From sequence record KY963424: a DNA stretch of 64,000 nucleotides, one strand, 5' to 3'. The position numbers were made by a program, and so were the translations under genes. Every line of letters starts with the position of its first letter. Within the stretch, counting starts at the first letter, position 1. The DNA comes from Shigella phage SSP1. Positions 19,351 through 27,619 of the stretch are shown piece after piece. The notes below the pieces were generated by a model that was not told the origin of the DNA, searched no databases, and saw only the letters and a program-made list of their open reading frames with translations.

Positions 19351-21407
19351 TGATTTCGAATAATGCACCAGCCAAAATGGTCTTAAATAGTATAATGACT
19401 GGATATACAATGGCATATGTCCAGCACTCTATATATACTGACTATGACGTTATTGGCAGATCTTTTTGGTTAAAGACAGGAGAAAGTGTAGATAGACGTG
19501 ATTATACTGGTATAGATACTTTCTTCGTAATGATTAATAATCTGACCCCTTCAACCTCTTATGAGATTCAAGGGGCTTTCTACGACTCTATTATTGATTC
19601 TGAACTGTTAGAGGCTAAGATTGGTATCAATCTCTCTAATGAGACTAACTTTAGGACAAAAGAGAAGCCAACAATTGTTGCAGCAAGATCTGAATCAGAA
19701 CCTGTGGATGTTGGGGTAGGTGCACCGATAGTTATCGTAGAAACAACTGGTGAAGCAAGCTACTGTACTATTGAGTTAAAAAGTACAGCTACTGAAGACA
19801 GTCCTTGGACTAAGTATTACATTGGTGCTTTAGGTTCTACTATTAAATTTGGTGGAGTTCCTATCGGAGATTACAAGATCAGAATATCTGGTCAAGTAAC
19901 TATGCCTGATGGTGTTACAGTTGATTCTTCTGGGTATTATGAATTCCCTAATATTTTAACTGTAGCGTATAATTTTGTTCCTCCTACTGCACCTATCAAT
20001 ATTGTTTTTAAAGCTGCACGAATTGCTGATGGTAAAGAACGCTATGATGTTAGAATTGAGTGGGATTGGGAACGCGGTGGCGGTGCTAATGTTCGTGAGT
20101 TCTTGGTTACTTATATAAACTCTGAAGAATACGGTAAGACTGGCTGGGCTAAAGCCCAAAAGATAAACGTTGGTGCTGCTAGAGCTGCAACAATTATATC
20201 CTTTCCATGGAAAGTTGAGCATACTTTTAAGGTATCATCAATTGCCTGGGGACCAAATAAGCAGGATATAACAGAATCAGCTCCTGTAACATTTATATTG
20301 AATGAAGATACTCCTCTAGACAACAGCTTTGTCAATGAGACGGGTATTGATGTTAACTATGCCTTTATTAAAGGCAGCATGAAAGATGGAGAAATCTGGA
20401 GACAGACATTCTTAATCGATGCAGCTACTGGTGCTATTAACATCGGTCTGCTAGATGAAGAGGGAAAAGCACCTATTTCTTTTGATCCTATAAACCGTGT
20501 TGTTAACGTTGATGGTAAAGTAATTACTAGAGATATTAATGCTGCGAATTTTATCATGACTAACTTATCCGGTAAGGATAATCCAGCAATTTATACTCAA
20601 GGTAAATCTTGGGGAGATAATAACTCCGGTATTTGGATGGGCATGGATAATACCTCTGCCAAAGCTAAGTTAGACATTGGTAATGCCACACAGTGGATTC
20701 GTTATGATGGTGATGTGCTACGTATCTCTAGTGGTGTAGTAATTGGGACACCAAATGGCGATGTAGATATTGGTACTGGGATGCAGGGTAAACAAACAGT
20801 ATTTGTTTATAAGTTAGCAACATCTCTACCCGCTAAACCACTAGAACAAGATTACCCGCCTCCTGGTTGGTCAAAAACTCCACCTAACCGTACAGATATG
20901 ACACAAAATATCTATGCAACTACGGGTACACTTGATCCGGTTACTAACAAACTTCTTGAAGGTACTAGCTGGTCTGATGTAGTTCAGTGGAGTGGTACTG
21001 AAGGTACTATTGGTGCAGATGGTCAAAGGGGGCCTGGCATGTATTCCTTAGGTATTCCAGGTCTTGGAGGCTGGGATGATGGACAAGCTAATGCCTTCTT
21101 CCAGAATAACTTTGGTAGTCCACCAGTTAGATATGATGTATTGACTGAGTTTAATAGTAATGCTCCGCAATCTGCATTTACTCGTCAATGGAATGGTTCC
21201 GGTTGGATTAACCCTGCAATGGTTCTTCATGGCAACATGATTGTTAATGGAACTGTGACTGCTGATAAGATTGTGGCAGGAAATGCCTTCTTATCACAAA
21301 TCGGTGTTAATATAATCTATGATAGAAATGCTGCGTTATCAGGGAACCCTGAAGCATACTATAAGATGAAGATAGACCTAAATAGTGGGTATATCCATAT
21401 AAGGTAA
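19350..21407 (+). CDS. Central/straight fibre protein (pb4-like)
   Basis: About 685 aa from ATG 19350 (overlaps pb3 stop as TAATG; six-frame track starts at GTG 19335). T5 pb4 is about 688 aa. Confidence 0.6.
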
Positions 21408-21411
21408 AATA

Positions 21412-21834
21412 ATGAGTACAGAAAATAGAGTAATTGATATTGTTGTTGATGAGAAAGTACCTTATGGTCTTGTCATGCAGTTTATGGATGTTGATGATAG
21501 TGTCTACCCTCCCTCTGAAATACCTGTTAACCTAACAGGTTACTCACTTCGTGGAACTATTAAAGCAAGTCTTGATGAAGATGCAGAAACTTTAGCTACT
21601 TTTAAAACTCGTATAATCGATGCGGCTCAAGGAGCTGCTGCTATTAGCCTTAGTGTTGGAGATGTTAATAATATTGGTATTAAGGCATCCAAAGAGCGTG
21701 ATAAATATAACCCAAGACAACGTTTTGCAGGCTATTACGATATTCTAATGACCCGCGATGTTATTGGTTCAGAAGTCAGTTCTTTCCGTATTATGGAAGG
21801 AAAGGTTTATGTGAGTGATGGGGTAACTCAATAA
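21412..21834 (+). CDS. Tail collar protein (p132-like)
   Basis: 140 aa, same length as T5 p132; lies between pb4-like and fibre genes. Confidence 0.5.
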
Positions 21835-24800
21835 TGGCACTTAAAACTAAAATTATTGTACAGCAGATTCTGAACATAGATGACACTACAACTACTGCTA
21901 GTAAGTACCCTAAATATACAGTAGTTTTAGGAAATTCTATTAGCTCTATTACTGCTGGTGAATTAACTTCTGCTGTAGAAGCCTCCGCTGCTTCTGCGGC
22001 AGCAGCAAAAGGTTCTGAAATTGCTGCTAAAGATTCTGAGAATAAAGCAAAAGACTCCGAAATTATGGCGGGTATCTATGCAGATTCTTCCCAAACATCA
22101 GCTACTCAATCCGCAGCTTCAGCAGCAGAATCTGAGAAACAAGCTAGATTATCTCAGAAGAGTGCAGATGCTTCTGCTACATCAGCGGAAGAGTCTAAAG
22201 GATTTAGAGATTCTGCTGAACTAGCTGCTCAGAATGCTGAGAACAGTCGTAGACTTGCTGAACAAGCTAAGTCTGCTGCGCAAGCTGCTCAAACAGCGGC
22301 TGAAACTGCTAAGACTGGTGCTGAAACAGCAAAAGCTGGAGCAGATGCTGCTGCTACAACTGCTGGAGAACACGCTGCTGCTGCGAAACAATCAGAATTA
22401 AATGCTAAAACTTCTGAGACTAATGCTGCTAGCTCTGCTACAGAAGCGGGGGACAAAGCTATTGATGCTACTACTGAAGCAGATCGTGCTAAAGCTGAAG
22501 CAGATCGTGCAACTCAGATTGTTGATAGTAAACTTGATAAGGTAGATATTTCTGGTTTCATCAAAGTTTATAAGACTAAAGCAGAAGCCGATGCGGATGT
22601 TGGAAGTCGTGTACTAGGGGAGAAGATCCTAGTATGGAATCAAACTGATTCAAAATATGGGTGGTATAAGGTCACTGGTACTGCCGAAGCTCCTGTTCTA
22701 GAATTAGCAGAAATAGAGCAAAAGCTAGTTTCTATTAATAACGTTCGTGCAGATGACGCGGGTAACGTACAGATTACTCTTCCTGGTGGTAACCCCTCTT
22801 TATGGCTAGGTGAAGTTACTTGGTTCCCTTATGATAAAGATTCAGGTGTTGGCTATCCCGGTGTTCTGCCTGCCGATGGCCGTGAAGTCCTTCGTGTAGA
22901 CTACCCAGACACTTGGGAAGCCATCGAAGCTGGTCTAATTCCTTCTGTATCAGAAGCTGAATGGCAGGCTGGTGCAATACTCTACTTCTCCACTGGTGAT
23001 GGTTCTACAACCTTCCGTTTACCAGATATGATGCAAGGGCAGGCTTTCCGTGCACCAACTAAAGGTGAAGAAAATGCTGGTGCTATCAAAGAACAAATTC
23101 CTTATATCACCACTGTGAATGGAATTAGTCCTGCTGACGATACTGGAGCTATTAAGCTCCCTTACGTGGCGATGGTTAATGGAACTATTATACCAGATGA
23201 GAATGGAAACCTAGCACTAGGTAACGTTGTTACTAAGAATGTTTGGAATGGTACTGATGGAGAAGTTCTACTTCGTGGTGCTTTTGGTTTAGGTGGTGCT
23301 GGTATTGCGTTAAATGAACCTGATATAGTATCATTTTTTAAGGCTATGAGAGCTTTTGGCTCTGGGTATTATCGCAATGATACGGGATTTGATGGCTTGC
23401 CTGCATACGCTGCAGGTTTCTACTCCAGGGTAGCAGATACTAACTCGTTTATCTGCCCATCGTATGGTAGTGCTTCAGTATTTGTAGCTGCAATCAATGA
23501 TGCTGGTTTAGATAGTGAAAACCCTATTGTTCATACTAATATTCTTTATGGTACTGTTAATAAGCCAGATCTAAATGGTGATACTAATGGAGTTCTTAGT
23601 GTTGGTAAAGGCGGTACTGGAGCTACCACAGTTAGTGCTGCTAAGAAAGCTTTAGAAGTTGGTGGAGTTTTCTGTAATGATAGCCCAGCTGATGCTGCTT
23701 TCAACTCTCTCCAGAGCCCTGCTGGTATTCATGAGTTTAGACTAACTAATGAGGGGTTATGGGGTGTATGGAAGAAGGGGGAAGAAACGGTAGCTGCGTT
23801 GCCTATAGGCTCTGGTGGTACAGGAGCTACTGATAAAGTTGCTGCACGTGATAACTTTGAATTGGGGTATCATAATACTCCTAGATTTACTGGGGTAGAT
23901 CTATCTAATCCCGAAAGCATACCCTATAGTGGTATCCTTAATCTAAACAGGCTAAAGGAATCTGATCAAAATGTTATTACTCAGGGTAGAATCTATCATG
24001 AGATGCAATCAGATTTGGCTAAAATTACCCTTCATATTAACAATACTTTAAATGGTGCAAACCGTTATATACAGTTTGTAGAAAATGGTGATTTAACTGG
24101 GCTACAGAATGTACATGCAGTTAACTACCTTGCAAGTGGTTATGTTACAGCCCAGGGATGGATCAAAGGCGGGGAAAAAATCTATATACAGCAAACAGGT
24201 GGGGGCAACAGGGAAATTAGTATGGCTGTACCTACTCCTAATAATGACCCTGGTGCTGGTTCTTGGGTTAACTTACTACAGGGTAACTGGTATAACGGTT
24301 ACTGGCAAGTAGGTGGTATCCGTGGTAGTGGACCGGACTTAGACTGCCTCCGTATTGGAGTTAACAACTCTGGTACAGATTGGAAGGAATTCAATTTCTA
24401 CAACTCCTATGGTGGCCATATAACTGCTCCAAAAGGTTTTCGTGGTCAGTGTACTCAAGGATATTGGGGCTTAGAGTGGGATTACATGGGCGCCCCATTT
24501 CATGCAGAGTCTGTAGCAAATAATGATGGTGGTTGGTCTCCTATAGTATCGGGAGGTTCTTTATCCGCTGGTGGATATCATTTAAGAATAGGCCTTGGCT
24601 GTATCTCTAATGGTAACGCTGCATGGCCTGACGCTGCTCTTAAGTTAAATGGGGATGGCCAGTTCCACCGTTCATTCAACTTTAGAACAAACGGTAGCGT
24701 GTATACTTGGGGTAATGATCCTTGGGGAGGTAACTATGACTTTGCTATGAACCCTTCTTCAGATAGAGATATCAAAAGAGATATTAATTATGATGATGGG

Positions 24801-25184
24801 TTAGCCTCCTATGAGAATATAAAGCAATTTAAACCTACCACATTTATCTATAAACTAGATAAGTATAATCGTGTACGCCGTGGTGTTATTGCTCAAGATC
24901 TTTATAAAATTGACCCTGAGTACGTAAAACTGGTTCCTGGTTCCCCTATCATAGAAACTCCAGAACATCATTGCTGTGACGAAAAAACTGAGAACGTAGA
25001 AAGTAAGATCATTGACTATGAGGATGATACTTTAGCTCTGGATATTAACCCGATCGCTATTGATACGGCATTAGCAGTTCGTTACTTGTCTCTAAAGTTC
25101 GAAGAGTCCCAGGAAGAACTGAAGTCCGTTAAGGCAGAACTGGCAGAGTTAAAAGCTCTAGTAGCCACTCTGGTAAATAAGTAA
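21834..25184 (+). CDS. L-shaped (lateral) tail fibre protein A with C-terminal S74 intramolecular chaperone domain
   Basis: 1116 aa; N-terminal Ala/Ser/Glu-rich coiled-coil; two GGTGAT...A(A/K)K.LEV-type fibre repeats; C-terminal ~150 aa (SSDRDIKRDINYDDGLASYENIKQFKPTTFIYK ... AELKALVATL) has the hallmarks of the self-cleaving S74 chaperone domain. Confidence 0.8.
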   Translation: MALKTKIIVQQILNIDDTTTTASKYPKYTVVLGNSISSITAGELTSAVEASAASAAAAKGSEIAAKDSENKAKDSEIMAGIYADSSQTSATQSAASAAESEKQARLSQKSADASATSAEESKGFRDSAELAAQNAENSRRLAEQAKSAAQAAQTAAETAKTGAETAKAGADAAATTAGEHAAAAKQSELNAKTSETNAASSATEAGDKAIDATTEADRAKAEADRATQIVDSKLDKVDISGFIKVYKTKAEADADVGSRVLGEKILVWNQTDSKYGWYKVTGTAEAPVLELAEIEQKLVSINNVRADDAGNVQITLPGGNPSLWLGEVTWFPYDKDSGVGYPGVLPADGREVLRVDYPDTWEAIEAGLIPSVSEAEWQAGAILYFSTGDGSTTFRLPDMMQGQAFRAPTKGEENAGAIKEQIPYITTVNGISPADDTGAIKLPYVAMVNGTIIPDENGNLALGNVVTKNVWNGTDGEVLLRGAFGLGGAGIALNEPDIVSFFKAMRAFGSGYYRNDTGFDGLPAYAAGFYSRVADTNSFICPSYGSASVFVAAINDAGLDSENPIVHTNILYGTVNKPDLNGDTNGVLSVGKGGTGATTVSAAKKALEVGGVFCNDSPADAAFNSLQSPAGIHEFRLTNEGLWGVWKKGEETVAALPIGSGGTGATDKVAARDNFELGYHNTPRFTGVDLSNPESIPYSGILNLNRLKESDQNVITQGRIYHEMQSDLAKITLHINNTLNGANRYIQFVENGDLTGLQNVHAVNYLASGYVTAQGWIKGGEKIYIQQTGGGNREISMAVPTPNNDPGAGSWVNLLQGNWYNGYWQVGGIRGSGPDLDCLRIGVNNSGTDWKEFNFYNSYGGHITAPKGFRGQCTQGYWGLEWDYMGAPFHAESVANNDGGWSPIVSGGSLSAGGYHLRIGLGCISNGNAAWPDAALKLNGDGQFHRSFNFRTNGSVYTWGNDPWGGNYDFAMNPSSDRDIKRDINYDDGLASYENIKQFKPTTFIYKLDKYNRVRRGVIAQDLYKIDPEYVKLVPGSPIIETPEHHCCDEKTENVESKIIDYEDDTLALDINPIAIDTALAVRYLSLKFEESQEELKSVKAELAELKALVATLVNK

Positions 25185-25189
25185 GAGTA

Positions 25190-25214
25190 TAGGGGAGTAA
25201 TTCTCCCCTATTTA
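25190..25214 (+). terminator. Hairpin between the two fibre genes (possible attenuator)
   Basis: 8-bp stem TAGGGGAG/CTCCCCTA, loop TAATT, followed by a weak TTTA tract. Confidence 0.3.
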
Positions 25215-25227
25215 CTAAGGAAATACT

Positions 25228-27315
25228 ATGTCACGTAATTTAATGCCTAAATCTGGCGCAATGGCGCCTTACGTAGTAGTTAACAGAGACGCTGCAGTTG
25301 CTGGTGTTTTCTCTGTCGATGGAGAGGCTGGTGCTGTTGTACTAACTTCCAAATATCTACAAATTACAAAATATACTACTGATAAAGCTGCTACTGATGC
25401 ATCTATTAATAGTATTAATGAATCAATTGGTAATATTAATACTGCATTAGGTGGTATTAATACTACTTTAGGTACTAAAGCTGCTAAAGGTGCTAATAAC
25501 GATATTACAGAATTAAATGCACTGACTAAAGCTATTACTATTGCTCAGGGTGGTACTGGTGCTACTACGTTAGAGGGTGCTAAGAAGGCCTTACAAGTTG
25601 AGCGCCTTCGCCAACAGAGTAATGGAACTTTTATTGTATCTCCTAATGAGAAATATTCTTTATTTATATATGATAGTGGAGATTTTGGTCTACTTGATAA
25701 TTCTACCGCAGCAGTACAAGCATTAAAAGTTGCATTTGGTGGTACTGGAGGAACTACTCCAAAAGCAGCAAGAAAAAATCTTAATGTTCCGGTTGGCGCC
25801 TCGGCTGAAAAAATTGCTGATGGGGAAGATGTTCTAAACTATATTGCGGTTGCAGGTCAAAGTGGATACTATTCATCTGGTGAATTAATAGTTAATGGGC
25901 CTCCTAAGCAAGAAGGTTGGTGGGCCTATAACTTCCACTGTCATGGTGTGGATATTAACGGAGCTGCTCAGTATGGTACACTAAAAGCTACAGGAGCACT
26001 TGGAAGTACTTGGATCAATATTCTAGATGGTACAGACAACTGGAGAGGATGGAAAGAGCAATTTAATACCCAGTCTATCATACAGTTTTCAAATGGGGGT
26101 ACTGGTGCTACTTCTAAAGATGGTGCAAGAACTAACCTGGATATTGACAGATTCAAACAAAGTGCTACTGAGACTATGGTATATGCTCCCGGAAGTGGAT
26201 TTAGAATCACTGCTAGGCCTAATGGGGAATGGGGTACATGGAGAGATGATACCGGTACTTGGGTTCCTTTGGCTATTACAGCCGGGGGTACAGGAGCTAA
26301 TTCTGCCGACCAAGCTAGAAAAAATCTAGAGTTAACAGAGTGGAACCTCTTATCCTCTATGGATGGTAAATACCCTAATGGGTTTAATTTTGACACTCTT
26401 GCTGTAAATAGTAAGTTTACTGTTCCACCTACTGGAGGAAATATTGTTGGTACCCGACCATACCAACAAATAAACGGGTTGGAAGACGCTTGGTTTTTCC
26501 TAGAGACTCTAGTACACCCAGATCCTAACTATAGAATGCAAAGAGCCACCACGTTTACAGGAACTTGGAAAGGTTCAGTAAGCGTACGTATTATGGAGAA
26601 TGGTACTTGGGGTGTATGGCAACAAGCTCATGGGGCTTTGGGGCAATTAGTTAATGCAATCTCTAACCGAGGTGCCATTAGAGTACAGGGGGCTGCAAGT
26701 GGGGAATCTGGGTCACTAATAAGTGGTGCTATTACTGGTGGTTCATTTACTGATTGGAGATCAAGACCTACAGGAGTACTAGTAGAACATACTGGATTGG
26801 ATTCTGCATCTTCTGTATTTAAAAGCGTAATGTGGGGTGTAGACTGGTTAGCCGGTATGGATGTAGTAGGCTGGAGTGCCGGCGGTGCACAGTTAAACAT
26901 GTATTGCAGGGGGGCTGAGTTTCGTTTTGATAGCGCTGGTAATGCTGTTGGTGGTAACTGGGTAAGCAGTTCTGATATTCGCATGAAAGCCAATCTTAAG
27001 GAAATTGAGAATGCTCGTGATAAGGTTAAGTCTCTAGTAGGCTATACATACTACAAGAGAAATACTCTAGCAGAAGAAAGAGATACCGTGTACAGTACTG
27101 AGGCTGGTGTTATCGCTCAAGATGTGCAATCTGTTCTCCCAGAAGCAGTGTACAAGATTGAGCCACAAAAAGAAGACAGTATGCTTGGTGTCTCCCATGC
27201 AGGTGTCAATGCTCTTCTAGTTAATGCTTTTAATGAACTTAACGAAGTTGTTGAAAAGCAGCAACAAGAGATTGATGAGCTTAAGAAACTGGTAAAACAG
27301 TTACTTGATAAATAA
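25228..27315 (+). CDS. L-shaped (lateral) tail fibre protein B with C-terminal S74 intramolecular chaperone domain
   Basis: 695 aa; six copies of the GGTGA(T/N)...AR.NL.(L/V) fibre repeat; C-terminus (SSSDIRMKANLKEIENARDKVKSLVGYTYYKR ... IDELKKLVKQLLDK) is an S74 chaperone domain. Confidence 0.8.
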   Translation: MSRNLMPKSGAMAPYVVVNRDAAVAGVFSVDGEAGAVVLTSKYLQITKYTTDKAATDASINSINESIGNINTALGGINTTLGTKAAKGANNDITELNALTKAITIAQGGTGATTLEGAKKALQVERLRQQSNGTFIVSPNEKYSLFIYDSGDFGLLDNSTAAVQALKVAFGGTGGTTPKAARKNLNVPVGASAEKIADGEDVLNYIAVAGQSGYYSSGELIVNGPPKQEGWWAYNFHCHGVDINGAAQYGTLKATGALGSTWINILDGTDNWRGWKEQFNTQSIIQFSNGGTGATSKDGARTNLDIDRFKQSATETMVYAPGSGFRITARPNGEWGTWRDDTGTWVPLAITAGGTGANSADQARKNLELTEWNLLSSMDGKYPNGFNFDTLAVNSKFTVPPTGGNIVGTRPYQQINGLEDAWFFLETLVHPDPNYRMQRATTFTGTWKGSVSVRIMENGTWGVWQQAHGALGQLVNAISNRGAIRVQGAASGESGSLISGAITGGSFTDWRSRPTGVLVEHTGLDSASSVFKSVMWGVDWLAGMDVVGWSAGGAQLNMYCRGAEFRFDSAGNAVGGNWVSSSDIRMKANLKEIENARDKVKSLVGYTYYKRNTLAEERDTVYSTEAGVIAQDVQSVLPEAVYKIEPQKEDSMLGVSHAGVNALLVNAFNELNEVVEKQQQEIDELKKLVKQLLDK

Positions 27316-27321
27316 AAGAAA

Positions 27322-27346
27322 ACCCCAGTGGATTGCCCACTGGGGT
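27322..27346. terminator. Bidirectional rho-independent terminator between convergent late and early modules
   Basis: 10-bp stem ACCCCAGTGG/CCACTGGGGT with 5-nt loop, flanked by AAAAGAAA upstream and TTATTATT downstream, so it is U-tract-competent on both strands. Confidence 0.75.
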
Positions 27347-27352
27347 TTATTA

Positions 27353-27619
27353 TTACCTGCTACCAGCAATAATACCTAAATTAAACACTGCTAACATAGC
27401 TCGAAGAGTAGGATCTTCTGAATTACTACATAGTTCGATAAAAGCCTCCTCATCCCAATGGATTACATTGCCTTCACGATCTACTTTGAGAACTACGTTA
27501 TTCATGTCTGGTTCTGCTACCATAACATGATGATATGTAGCGGGATGTTCAAATGATCCTACCATATTAGGATCAACAAAATTATTTACTTCCTGAACTT
27601 CCAAATCCACCTTCTCCAC
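27353..27619 (-). CDS. Hypothetical protein
   Basis: 88-aa ORF, last gene of the leftward operon; real start may be an internal Met, which would remove the overlap with dut. Confidence 0.35.
   Translation of the reverse strand: MEKVDLEVQEVNNFVDPNMVGSFEHPATYHHVMVAEPDMNNVVLKVDREGNVIHWDEEAFIELCSNSEDPTLRAMLAVFNLGIIAGSR

Follow-up and report, generated by a model that had tools for sequence, protein, structure and literature searches.

The 64,000-nucleotide stretch of the Shigella phage SSP1 genome analysed here (KY963424; hereafter the window) contains, on its plus strand, two consecutive fibre genes, ltfA and ltfB, directly preceded by a collar gene, ltfC. Very probably these three genes form a locus for lateral (L-shaped) tail fibres of the DT57C / SPC35 / vB_Sen-E22 type, in a T5-like phage of Salmonella (Demerecviridae, Markadamsvirinae). 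The two-protein arrangement is already known: a description appeared in 2016 and a refinement by cryo-electron microscopy (cryo-EM) in 2023, T5-like phages are routinely annotated with it, and homologues of the SSP1 proteins already carry the names 'L-shaped tail fiber protein A/B'. What is new here is only the particular combination of alleles otherwise found in phages vB_Sen-E22 (E22) and Th1. The original prediction, made from the sequence alone, had proposed two consecutive fibre genes of 1116 and 695 amino acids (aa), and the open reading frames (ORFs) are exactly as it gave them: both begin with ATG, they lie 43 nt apart on the same strand, and both proteins match PHROG tail-fibre families over their full length (phrog_5481 and phrog_12321, E = 0). 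The three genes are:

21412..21834 (+): ltfC, a 140-aa collar protein anchoring the lateral fibres to the tail (Pfam PF23926 LtfC, E 1.7e-14); its stop codon overlaps the ltfA start codon (TAATG)
21834..25184 (+): ltfA, a 1116-aa proximal fibre protein; best PDB sequence match DT57C LtfA, 8hqz_d, E 9.6e-245
25228..27315 (+): ltfB, a 695-aa second fibre protein, the same in protein sequence as its E22 homologue

The assignment is carried by the proximal parts of the fibre and by the C-terminal chaperones. Gene order (pb3, pb4, ltfC, ltfA, ltfB, then a convergent dut) is that of DT57C, whose LtfC is 93% identical to the SSP1 protein and whose LtfA is 88% identical over aa 1-442 (PMC4728585, PMC10713586, PDB 8hqz; the known system is that of the Escherichia phages DT57C and DT571/2). 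Within this conserved part lies a domain, LtfA aa 223-442, that matches aa 239-461 of phiEco32 gp14 (43% identity, E 6.5e-46) and, in a PDB sequence search, the SU10 fibre 7z47_D (E 4.3e-41); its boundaries are essentially those that Golomidova et al. gave for DT57C. At its N-terminus LtfB is nearly identical to DT57C LtfB for the first 45 to 50 aa, and this stretch is also homologous to phiEco32 gp15 and its SU10 counterpart, at 71% identity over 45 aa by tblastn; BLASTP against gp15 gives 66% over 56 aa. The two SSP1 genes pair the same two modules, in the same order, as gp14/gp15 of phiEco32 and gp12/gp13 of SU10, both Kuravirus podoviruses that also carry a hairpin in the spacer between the genes; the podovirus fibres, however, are attached to an adaptor rather than to an LtfC collar, and phiEco32 gp14 lacks an S74 motif by alignment. 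The modules of the two SSP1 proteins are as follows:

21834..22499 (+): LtfA aa 1-222, N-terminal strands inserting into the LtfC ring, then an Ala-rich trimeric coiled coil; structural role from Ayala 2023 (PMC10713586)
22500..23159 (+): LtfA aa 223-442, domain like phiEco32 gp14 and SU10 gp12; proposed LtfB docking site
23160..24758 (+): LtfA aa 443-975, variable distal region comprising the shaft and the receptor-binding tip, with one paired-motif cassette
24759..25181 (+): LtfA aa 976-1116, S74 intramolecular chaperone; cleavage predicted before S976, giving a 975-aa mature fibre and a 141-aa released module
25228..25362 (+): LtfB aa 1-45, phiEco32 gp15-like N-terminal module; proposed plug joining LtfB to LtfA
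25534..26337 (+): LtfB aa 103-370, a beta-sandwich domain (aa ~190-280) with a paired-motif cassette on either side (aa 103-190 and 285-370)
26338..26970 (+): LtfB aa 371-581, distal receptor-binding tip
26971..27312 (+): LtfB aa 582-695, S74 intramolecular chaperone (PF13884); cleavage predicted before S582, giving a 581-aa mature fibre and a 114-aa released module

T5 itself, for which the original prediction had given a single fibre protein of about 1400 aa, indeed has one such protein (pb1, or Ltf) of 1396 aa. It shares with the SSP1 locus its N-terminus (48% identity to LtfA aa 1-230), a C-terminal S74 module, its genomic position and a downstream bidirectional terminator. T5 Ltf is, however, one polypeptide with no gp14-like dock and no second fibre gene beside it, whereas here there are two genes, each with its own start, chaperone and stop; by BLASTP, LtfB has no match in T5 Ltf.

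That each protein ends in an S74 domain, as first proposed, is borne out by Pfam: PF13884 (Peptidase_S74) is found in LtfA at aa 976-1032 (39.2 bits, E 8.7e-10) and in LtfB at aa 582-642 (50.9 bits, E 1.9e-13), both above the gathering score of 22 bits. The catalytic Ser-x4-Lys pairs, S976/K981 in LtfA and S582/K587 in LtfB, align in register with those of both DT57C proteins, of phiEco32 gp15 and of T5 Ltf (S1264/K1269, the residues reported as catalytic in pb1). Among 63 to 64 homologues the pairs are invariant or nearly so; S582 and K587 of LtfB are invariant in 64. The fold expected of such a chaperone, which has a long helix at its C-terminus, is confirmed for LtfA by an AlphaFold2 (AF2) model and fold search, and for LtfB by sequence matches to solved chaperones, namely S16 gp37 (6f45, E 1.4e-11) and the MyRF ICA domain (7dc3). 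Neither of the two findings that the original prediction named as refuting it is seen: both modules keep their Ser/Lys pair, and LtfB opens with an independent module of the gp15 type rather than continuing a frameshifted LtfA. The chaperone modules are only ~27% identical to those of DT57C. The LtfA module also contains a variable acidic insert that includes 'PEHHCC', conceivably a metal site (24945-25010, aa ~1038-1059), which is common to the closest relatives only and modelled at an AF2 confidence below 50; other homologues have unrelated sequence at this position.

Homology with DT57C shows LtfC to be a collar on the tail, with the N-terminus of LtfA (aa 1 to ~40) inserted into it and the coiled coil following; LtfA trimers would be locked in this ring. 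The LtfB trimer would then dock on the LtfA mid-domain, as DT57C genetics and cryo-EM suggest, so that the fibre branches and bears two distal tips of different kinds; placing the dock at the gp14-like domain follows Golomidova 2016, and should be read as a role inferred for that domain. Each chaperone would aid the folding of its own trimer and then sever itself from it, the cuts lying before S976 (LtfA) and before S582 (LtfB), as in the DT57C model. On the same model the two tips would reversibly bind surface polysaccharide, most likely the Salmonella O-antigen (the original prediction, too, had thought O-antigen probable), holding the virion at the cell while a central-fibre protein of the pb5 type reaches its outer-membrane receptor, probably BtuB. 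Golomidova 2016 (PMC4728585) provided the genetic evidence for branching and lists SPC35 among the phages with two ltf genes; Ayala 2023 (PMC10713586) showed the LtfA-LtfC interface and found no LtfB density on the tail core; and Maffei 2021 noted that such fibres are made of one or two proteins. The DT57C-type fibre with two receptor-binding ends that was originally predicted thus agrees with the LtfC, LtfA N-terminal, gp14-like, gp15-like and S74 features recognizable in the SSP1 sequence, and with the listing of SPC35.

The window opens inside the gene for the pb5-type receptor-binding protein (1-933, +), of which a 310-aa C-terminal fragment is present. This fragment is 74% identical to the BtuB-binding protein of DT57C and 33% identical to the FhuA-binding pb5 of T5, which suggests BtuB as the terminal receptor.

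Nucleotide comparisons place the locus firmly among known phages. The region matches 379 phage records, of which 34 cover at least 80% of the locus and none exceeds 99.0% identity over the whole region. Across 6.3 kb, identity is 99.0% to E22 (MT311645), 98.1% to NR01, 96.4% to Th1 and 96.3% to SPC35 (HQ406778), all of which have the same locus; the ORF lengths of 140, 1116 and 695 aa are the same in E22 and Th1, the two checked. The SSP1 version differs from both E22 and Th1 in being a three-piece mosaic, with E22-like flanks around a middle that is identical to Th1:

21400-23485: 1 difference from E22, 102 from Th1
23486-25550 (+; 2065 nt): recombinant cassette, 63 differences from E22, 0 from Th1
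25551-27315: 1 difference from E22, 64 from Th1

The first breakpoint falls at ltfA codon ~551-557 and the second between 25049 and 25551, the latter being the first difference from Th1 past the cassette and lying inside the first GGTGAT motif of LtfB. Enclosed by these are the distal half of LtfA with its chaperone, the intergenic hairpin and the conserved 5' end of ltfB. LtfA differences from E22 are concentrated at aa 800-1000, and 44 of the 63 nucleotide differences in the middle segment fall within 24386-24701 (aa ~851-956). As read from these alignments, the distal half of LtfA is swapped as a unit relative to the closest published relative, while the LtfB tip is not part of the exchange. 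In DT57C and its relatives the locus is destabilised, and suffers deletions, through long direct repeats that ltfA and ltfB have in common; such repeats are absent from SSP1, where only motif repeats of 32-44 nt at 61-81% identity were found. Among the database matches, PQ773600 ('Corynebacterium phage CPphiVTCCBPA_418') covers 95% of the region at 82.8% identity and, like the 'Campylobacter phage A148/C4' records MG065642 and MG065657, holds an enterobacterial T5-like or T1-like fibre locus; the host labels of these three records look doubtful, through contamination or mislabelling.

The distal parts of the two proteins are exchangeable cassettes. When aligned with DT57C LtfA and LtfB, the proximal modules of the SSP1 proteins match, while their distal regions (LtfA aa 443-975 and LtfB beyond ~aa 175) are unrelated to those of DT57C apart from motif-level similarity. 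They are also unrelated to each other, the two SSP1 proteins resembling one another only in the motif cassettes and, weakly, in the chaperone module; the coiled region of LtfB is also 28 aa shorter than in DT57C. Given distal regions this different, receptor specificity should differ as well. The shared element is a motif, GGTG(A/G)(T/N)...A(R/K)xxL, each copy of which forms a loop followed by a short helix in the AF2 model. The original prediction had recognized it as GGTGAT...ARxNLxL in 2 and 6 copies; the motif is real and the count was not, since LtfA has 2 (aa 593 and 661) and LtfB has 4 (aa 108, 171, 290 and 353), six being the total for the locus. Copies are paired around a beta module of ~45 aa (consensus ...G-WG...), giving a cassette of ~85-90 aa, of which there is one in LtfA (aa 588-677, nt 23595-23864) and two in LtfB (nt 25534-25797 and 26080-26337). 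The same paired-motif cassette is present in DT57C LtfB and in phiEco32 gp14.

The wider distribution of the tips is similarly mosaic. About 78% of the queried part of LtfA (aa 443-1116) is common to fibres of ~890 aa in many phages of ~50 kb, at 45-50% identity, and those named among them (egaa, FritzSarasin) are T1-like Drexlerviridae. ECOP18 shares the distal part of LtfA at 92% identity and not that of LtfB, and the LtfB tip itself has a mosaic distribution among phages: the LtfA and LtfB tips assort independently.

The distal parts of LtfA and LtfB contain no Pfam domain, and neither sequence nor fold searches found a receptor-binding tip like that of T5 pb1. For LtfB the mean predicted local distance difference test score (pLDDT) of the AF2 model is 71.9, exceeding 80 for aa 120-280, 300-370 and 540-695 (80-91 over the first two); the gp15-like N-terminal module is disordered in this monomer model. 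The whole-chain model has as structural neighbours the R1 pyocin fibre 6cl5 (E 7.3e-5), T4 gp34 and the receptor-binding proteins phage K gp144 and that of phi812, all non-enzymatic. The LtfA tip is modelled as beta-rich, with pLDDT of 80-90 at segment positions 240-320 and 370-410, and the AF2 fold search returned no confident or informative match for it among solved structures. A hidden depolymerase or esterase domain was considered for either fibre and rejected: none appeared in Pfam or the PDB sequence search, and the AF2 fold search gave no enzyme fold, matches to glycosidase, porin and teneurin folds having low probability or very large rmsd and being taken as spurious. Host-range mutations described for phage Phi37 (Ltf residues 468-556) could not be mapped onto LtfA; the N-terminus of Phi37 Ltf looks LtfA-like (A56 and A97 match), but residue 468 differs.

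Several points weigh against reading this locus as a branched, O-antigen-binding fibre. Attachment, cleavage and receptor binding are assigned to the SSP1 proteins by homology and inference. Even in DT57C the LtfA-LtfB contact is unresolved, weak densities having been read as folded-back LtfB (PMC10713586), and no solved structure contains an LtfB-type N-terminus, alone or docked on its partner; for the long fibre of SU10, the structural model is limited to residues 1-90. No relationship links the distal tips to any whose O-antigen specificity is known, and their monomer AF2 models are of only moderate confidence and have no informative structural neighbours.

It may be, then, that one or both tips bind a target other than O-antigen, such as the lipopolysaccharide (LPS) core, the enterobacterial common antigen, a capsule or a protein, although we consider this unlikely. 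Besides the lack of relationship to characterized tips, this idea draws on the LtfA tip module also occurring in T1-like phages that were isolated on E. coli K-12, which lacks O-antigen, and on the best structural neighbour of LtfB being the R1 pyocin fibre, one of a class that binds LPS core sugars. On the other hand, the lateral fibres of T5-like phages characteristically bind O-antigen. PMC12541327 moreover cites a protective effect of O-antigen glucosylation in Salmonella against SPC35, whose locus is 96% identical to that of SSP1. We think it rather improbable, in particular, that the LtfA tip (aa ~690-975) is an uncharacterised receptor-binding fold for a conserved enterobacterial surface glycan, as opposed to a serotype-specific O-antigen; if it were, such a tip might be part of the reason why phages like vB_Sen-E22 are reported to have a broad host range. 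Binding of O-antigen by both tips remains the reading that we favour.

One further element of the locus lies in the spacer, after the ltfA stop codon and ahead of the ltfB ribosome-binding site:

25189..25211 (no strand assigned): intergenic hairpin, stem 25189-25197 / 25203-25211 of 9 bp with 5 G-C pairs, loop TAATT

The original prediction had noted a weak hairpin here and suggested that it tunes the stoichiometry of the two fibre proteins. The hairpin is real (centroid energy -10.7 kcal/mol; z-score of the whole region -2.2), and the ltfB ribosome-binding site AAGGAAA (25217-25223) begins six bases after its end; the tuning role, by contrast, found no support. An attenuator setting the LtfA:LtfB ratio has in its favour the position of a G+C-rich, 9-bp hairpin between the two genes, and the fact that relatives with a spacer also have a stable one: DT57C, IrmaTschudi, TrudiGerster and phiEco32 (gp14-gp15), with spacers of 38 to 112 nt, all carry G+C-rich hairpins, several with UUCG-type loops, that are mutually unrelated in sequence. 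However, the stem in SSP1 is followed only by TTTACT, which is not a proper U-tract, and in HdH2, KKP_3711, Sw2 and KPP2018 the genes overlap by 1 nt (TAATG) with no spacer at all; in YZU-L1, the spacer is 400 nt. Moreover, if a branched fibre consists of one trimer of each protein, LtfA and LtfB would be needed at 1:1. Terminator-like sites in the region are not in excess (5 found against 4.2 expected from shuffled sequence), and the hairpin is not conserved among relatives, whose junctions (overlaps or unrelated hairpins) are too heterogeneous to be aligned for covariation. The hairpin of 25189-25211 is common only to relatives with the same ltfA 3' end and, being also without a U-tract, is dispensable for the two-fibre design. 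We accordingly hold a role as attenuator to be improbable; the hairpin is most plausibly a remnant, either of a weak terminator or of an RNA stabiliser, moving together with the ltfA 3' cassette, as would fit a horizontally acquired module.

A different geometry deserves mention, in which the fibre is serial and elbowed: LtfB would be the distal half-fibre, as proposed for gp12/gp13 of SU10, and LtfA beyond the dock would be structural rather than a second tip. In the SU10 paper the gp14/gp15 homologues are the 'proximal' and 'distal' long tail fibre proteins, together making a fibre with one elbow, and a branch is not explicitly described; no structure resolves the LtfA-LtfB junction. Yet LtfA runs 530 aa past the docking domain and is predicted to end in a chaperone-matured tip of its own. 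No part of the protein is more variable or more recombined than this tip, as would be expected of a receptor-binding end, and the tip is also shared with the fibres of T1-like phages; between DT57C and DT571/2, moreover, a swap of the LtfA distal part switches host specificity. We therefore regard a serial fibre as very unlikely, and a branched one with two receptor-binding tips as the better account of the SSP1 genes. That the pair is a single fibre gene split by a frameshift or sequencing error, as the adjacency of the two ORFs and the laboratory fusion of ltfA and ltfB by deletion in DT57C relatives might suggest, can be dismissed almost with certainty, since LtfA ends in a complete S74 module and terminal helix followed by a stop codon, LtfB has its own Met1, ribosome-binding site and N-terminal module homologous to that of the separate phiEco32 gp15, and the same two-gene layout recurs in at least 34 independently sequenced phages.

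The surroundings of the locus are those of a T5-like genome. Upstream are genes for terminase, portal, capsid, tail tube, tape measure, distal tail protein, pb3 and pb4; in the last, each of the four PB4 Pfam domains is found. For pb4 the automatic ORF call begins with GTG 19335 (690 aa), which makes it overlap pb3, whereas the published E22 and DT57C annotations start at ATG 19350 (685 aa). Downstream, the late fibre operon is separated from convergent early genes (dut, flap endonuclease, D14 and SbcCD) by:

27320..27348 (no strand assigned): strong bidirectional terminator, palindromic, with a 13-bp stem and T/A runs on both sides

The T5 annotation has an 'efficient bidirectional rho-independent transcription terminator' at the equivalent relative position. 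Just beyond the SSP1 terminator, at 27353-27619 (-), is an 88-aa ORF (phrog_5592) that is conserved but of unknown function; it corresponds to T5.132 and shares 38 nt with the 3' end of dut. Scans for tRNA genes and Rfam families found none in the 64-kb window. T5-like genomes carry a tRNA cluster elsewhere, which the window evidently excludes.

It is probably ltfA and ltfB that chiefly decide which strains of Salmonella or E. coli with O-antigen the phage can reach. The module boundaries laid out here (anchor, LtfB dock, cassettes, tips, cleavage sites, and recombination breakpoints at ~23486 and ~25550) aid host-range prediction and fibre-swap engineering in phages of this type.

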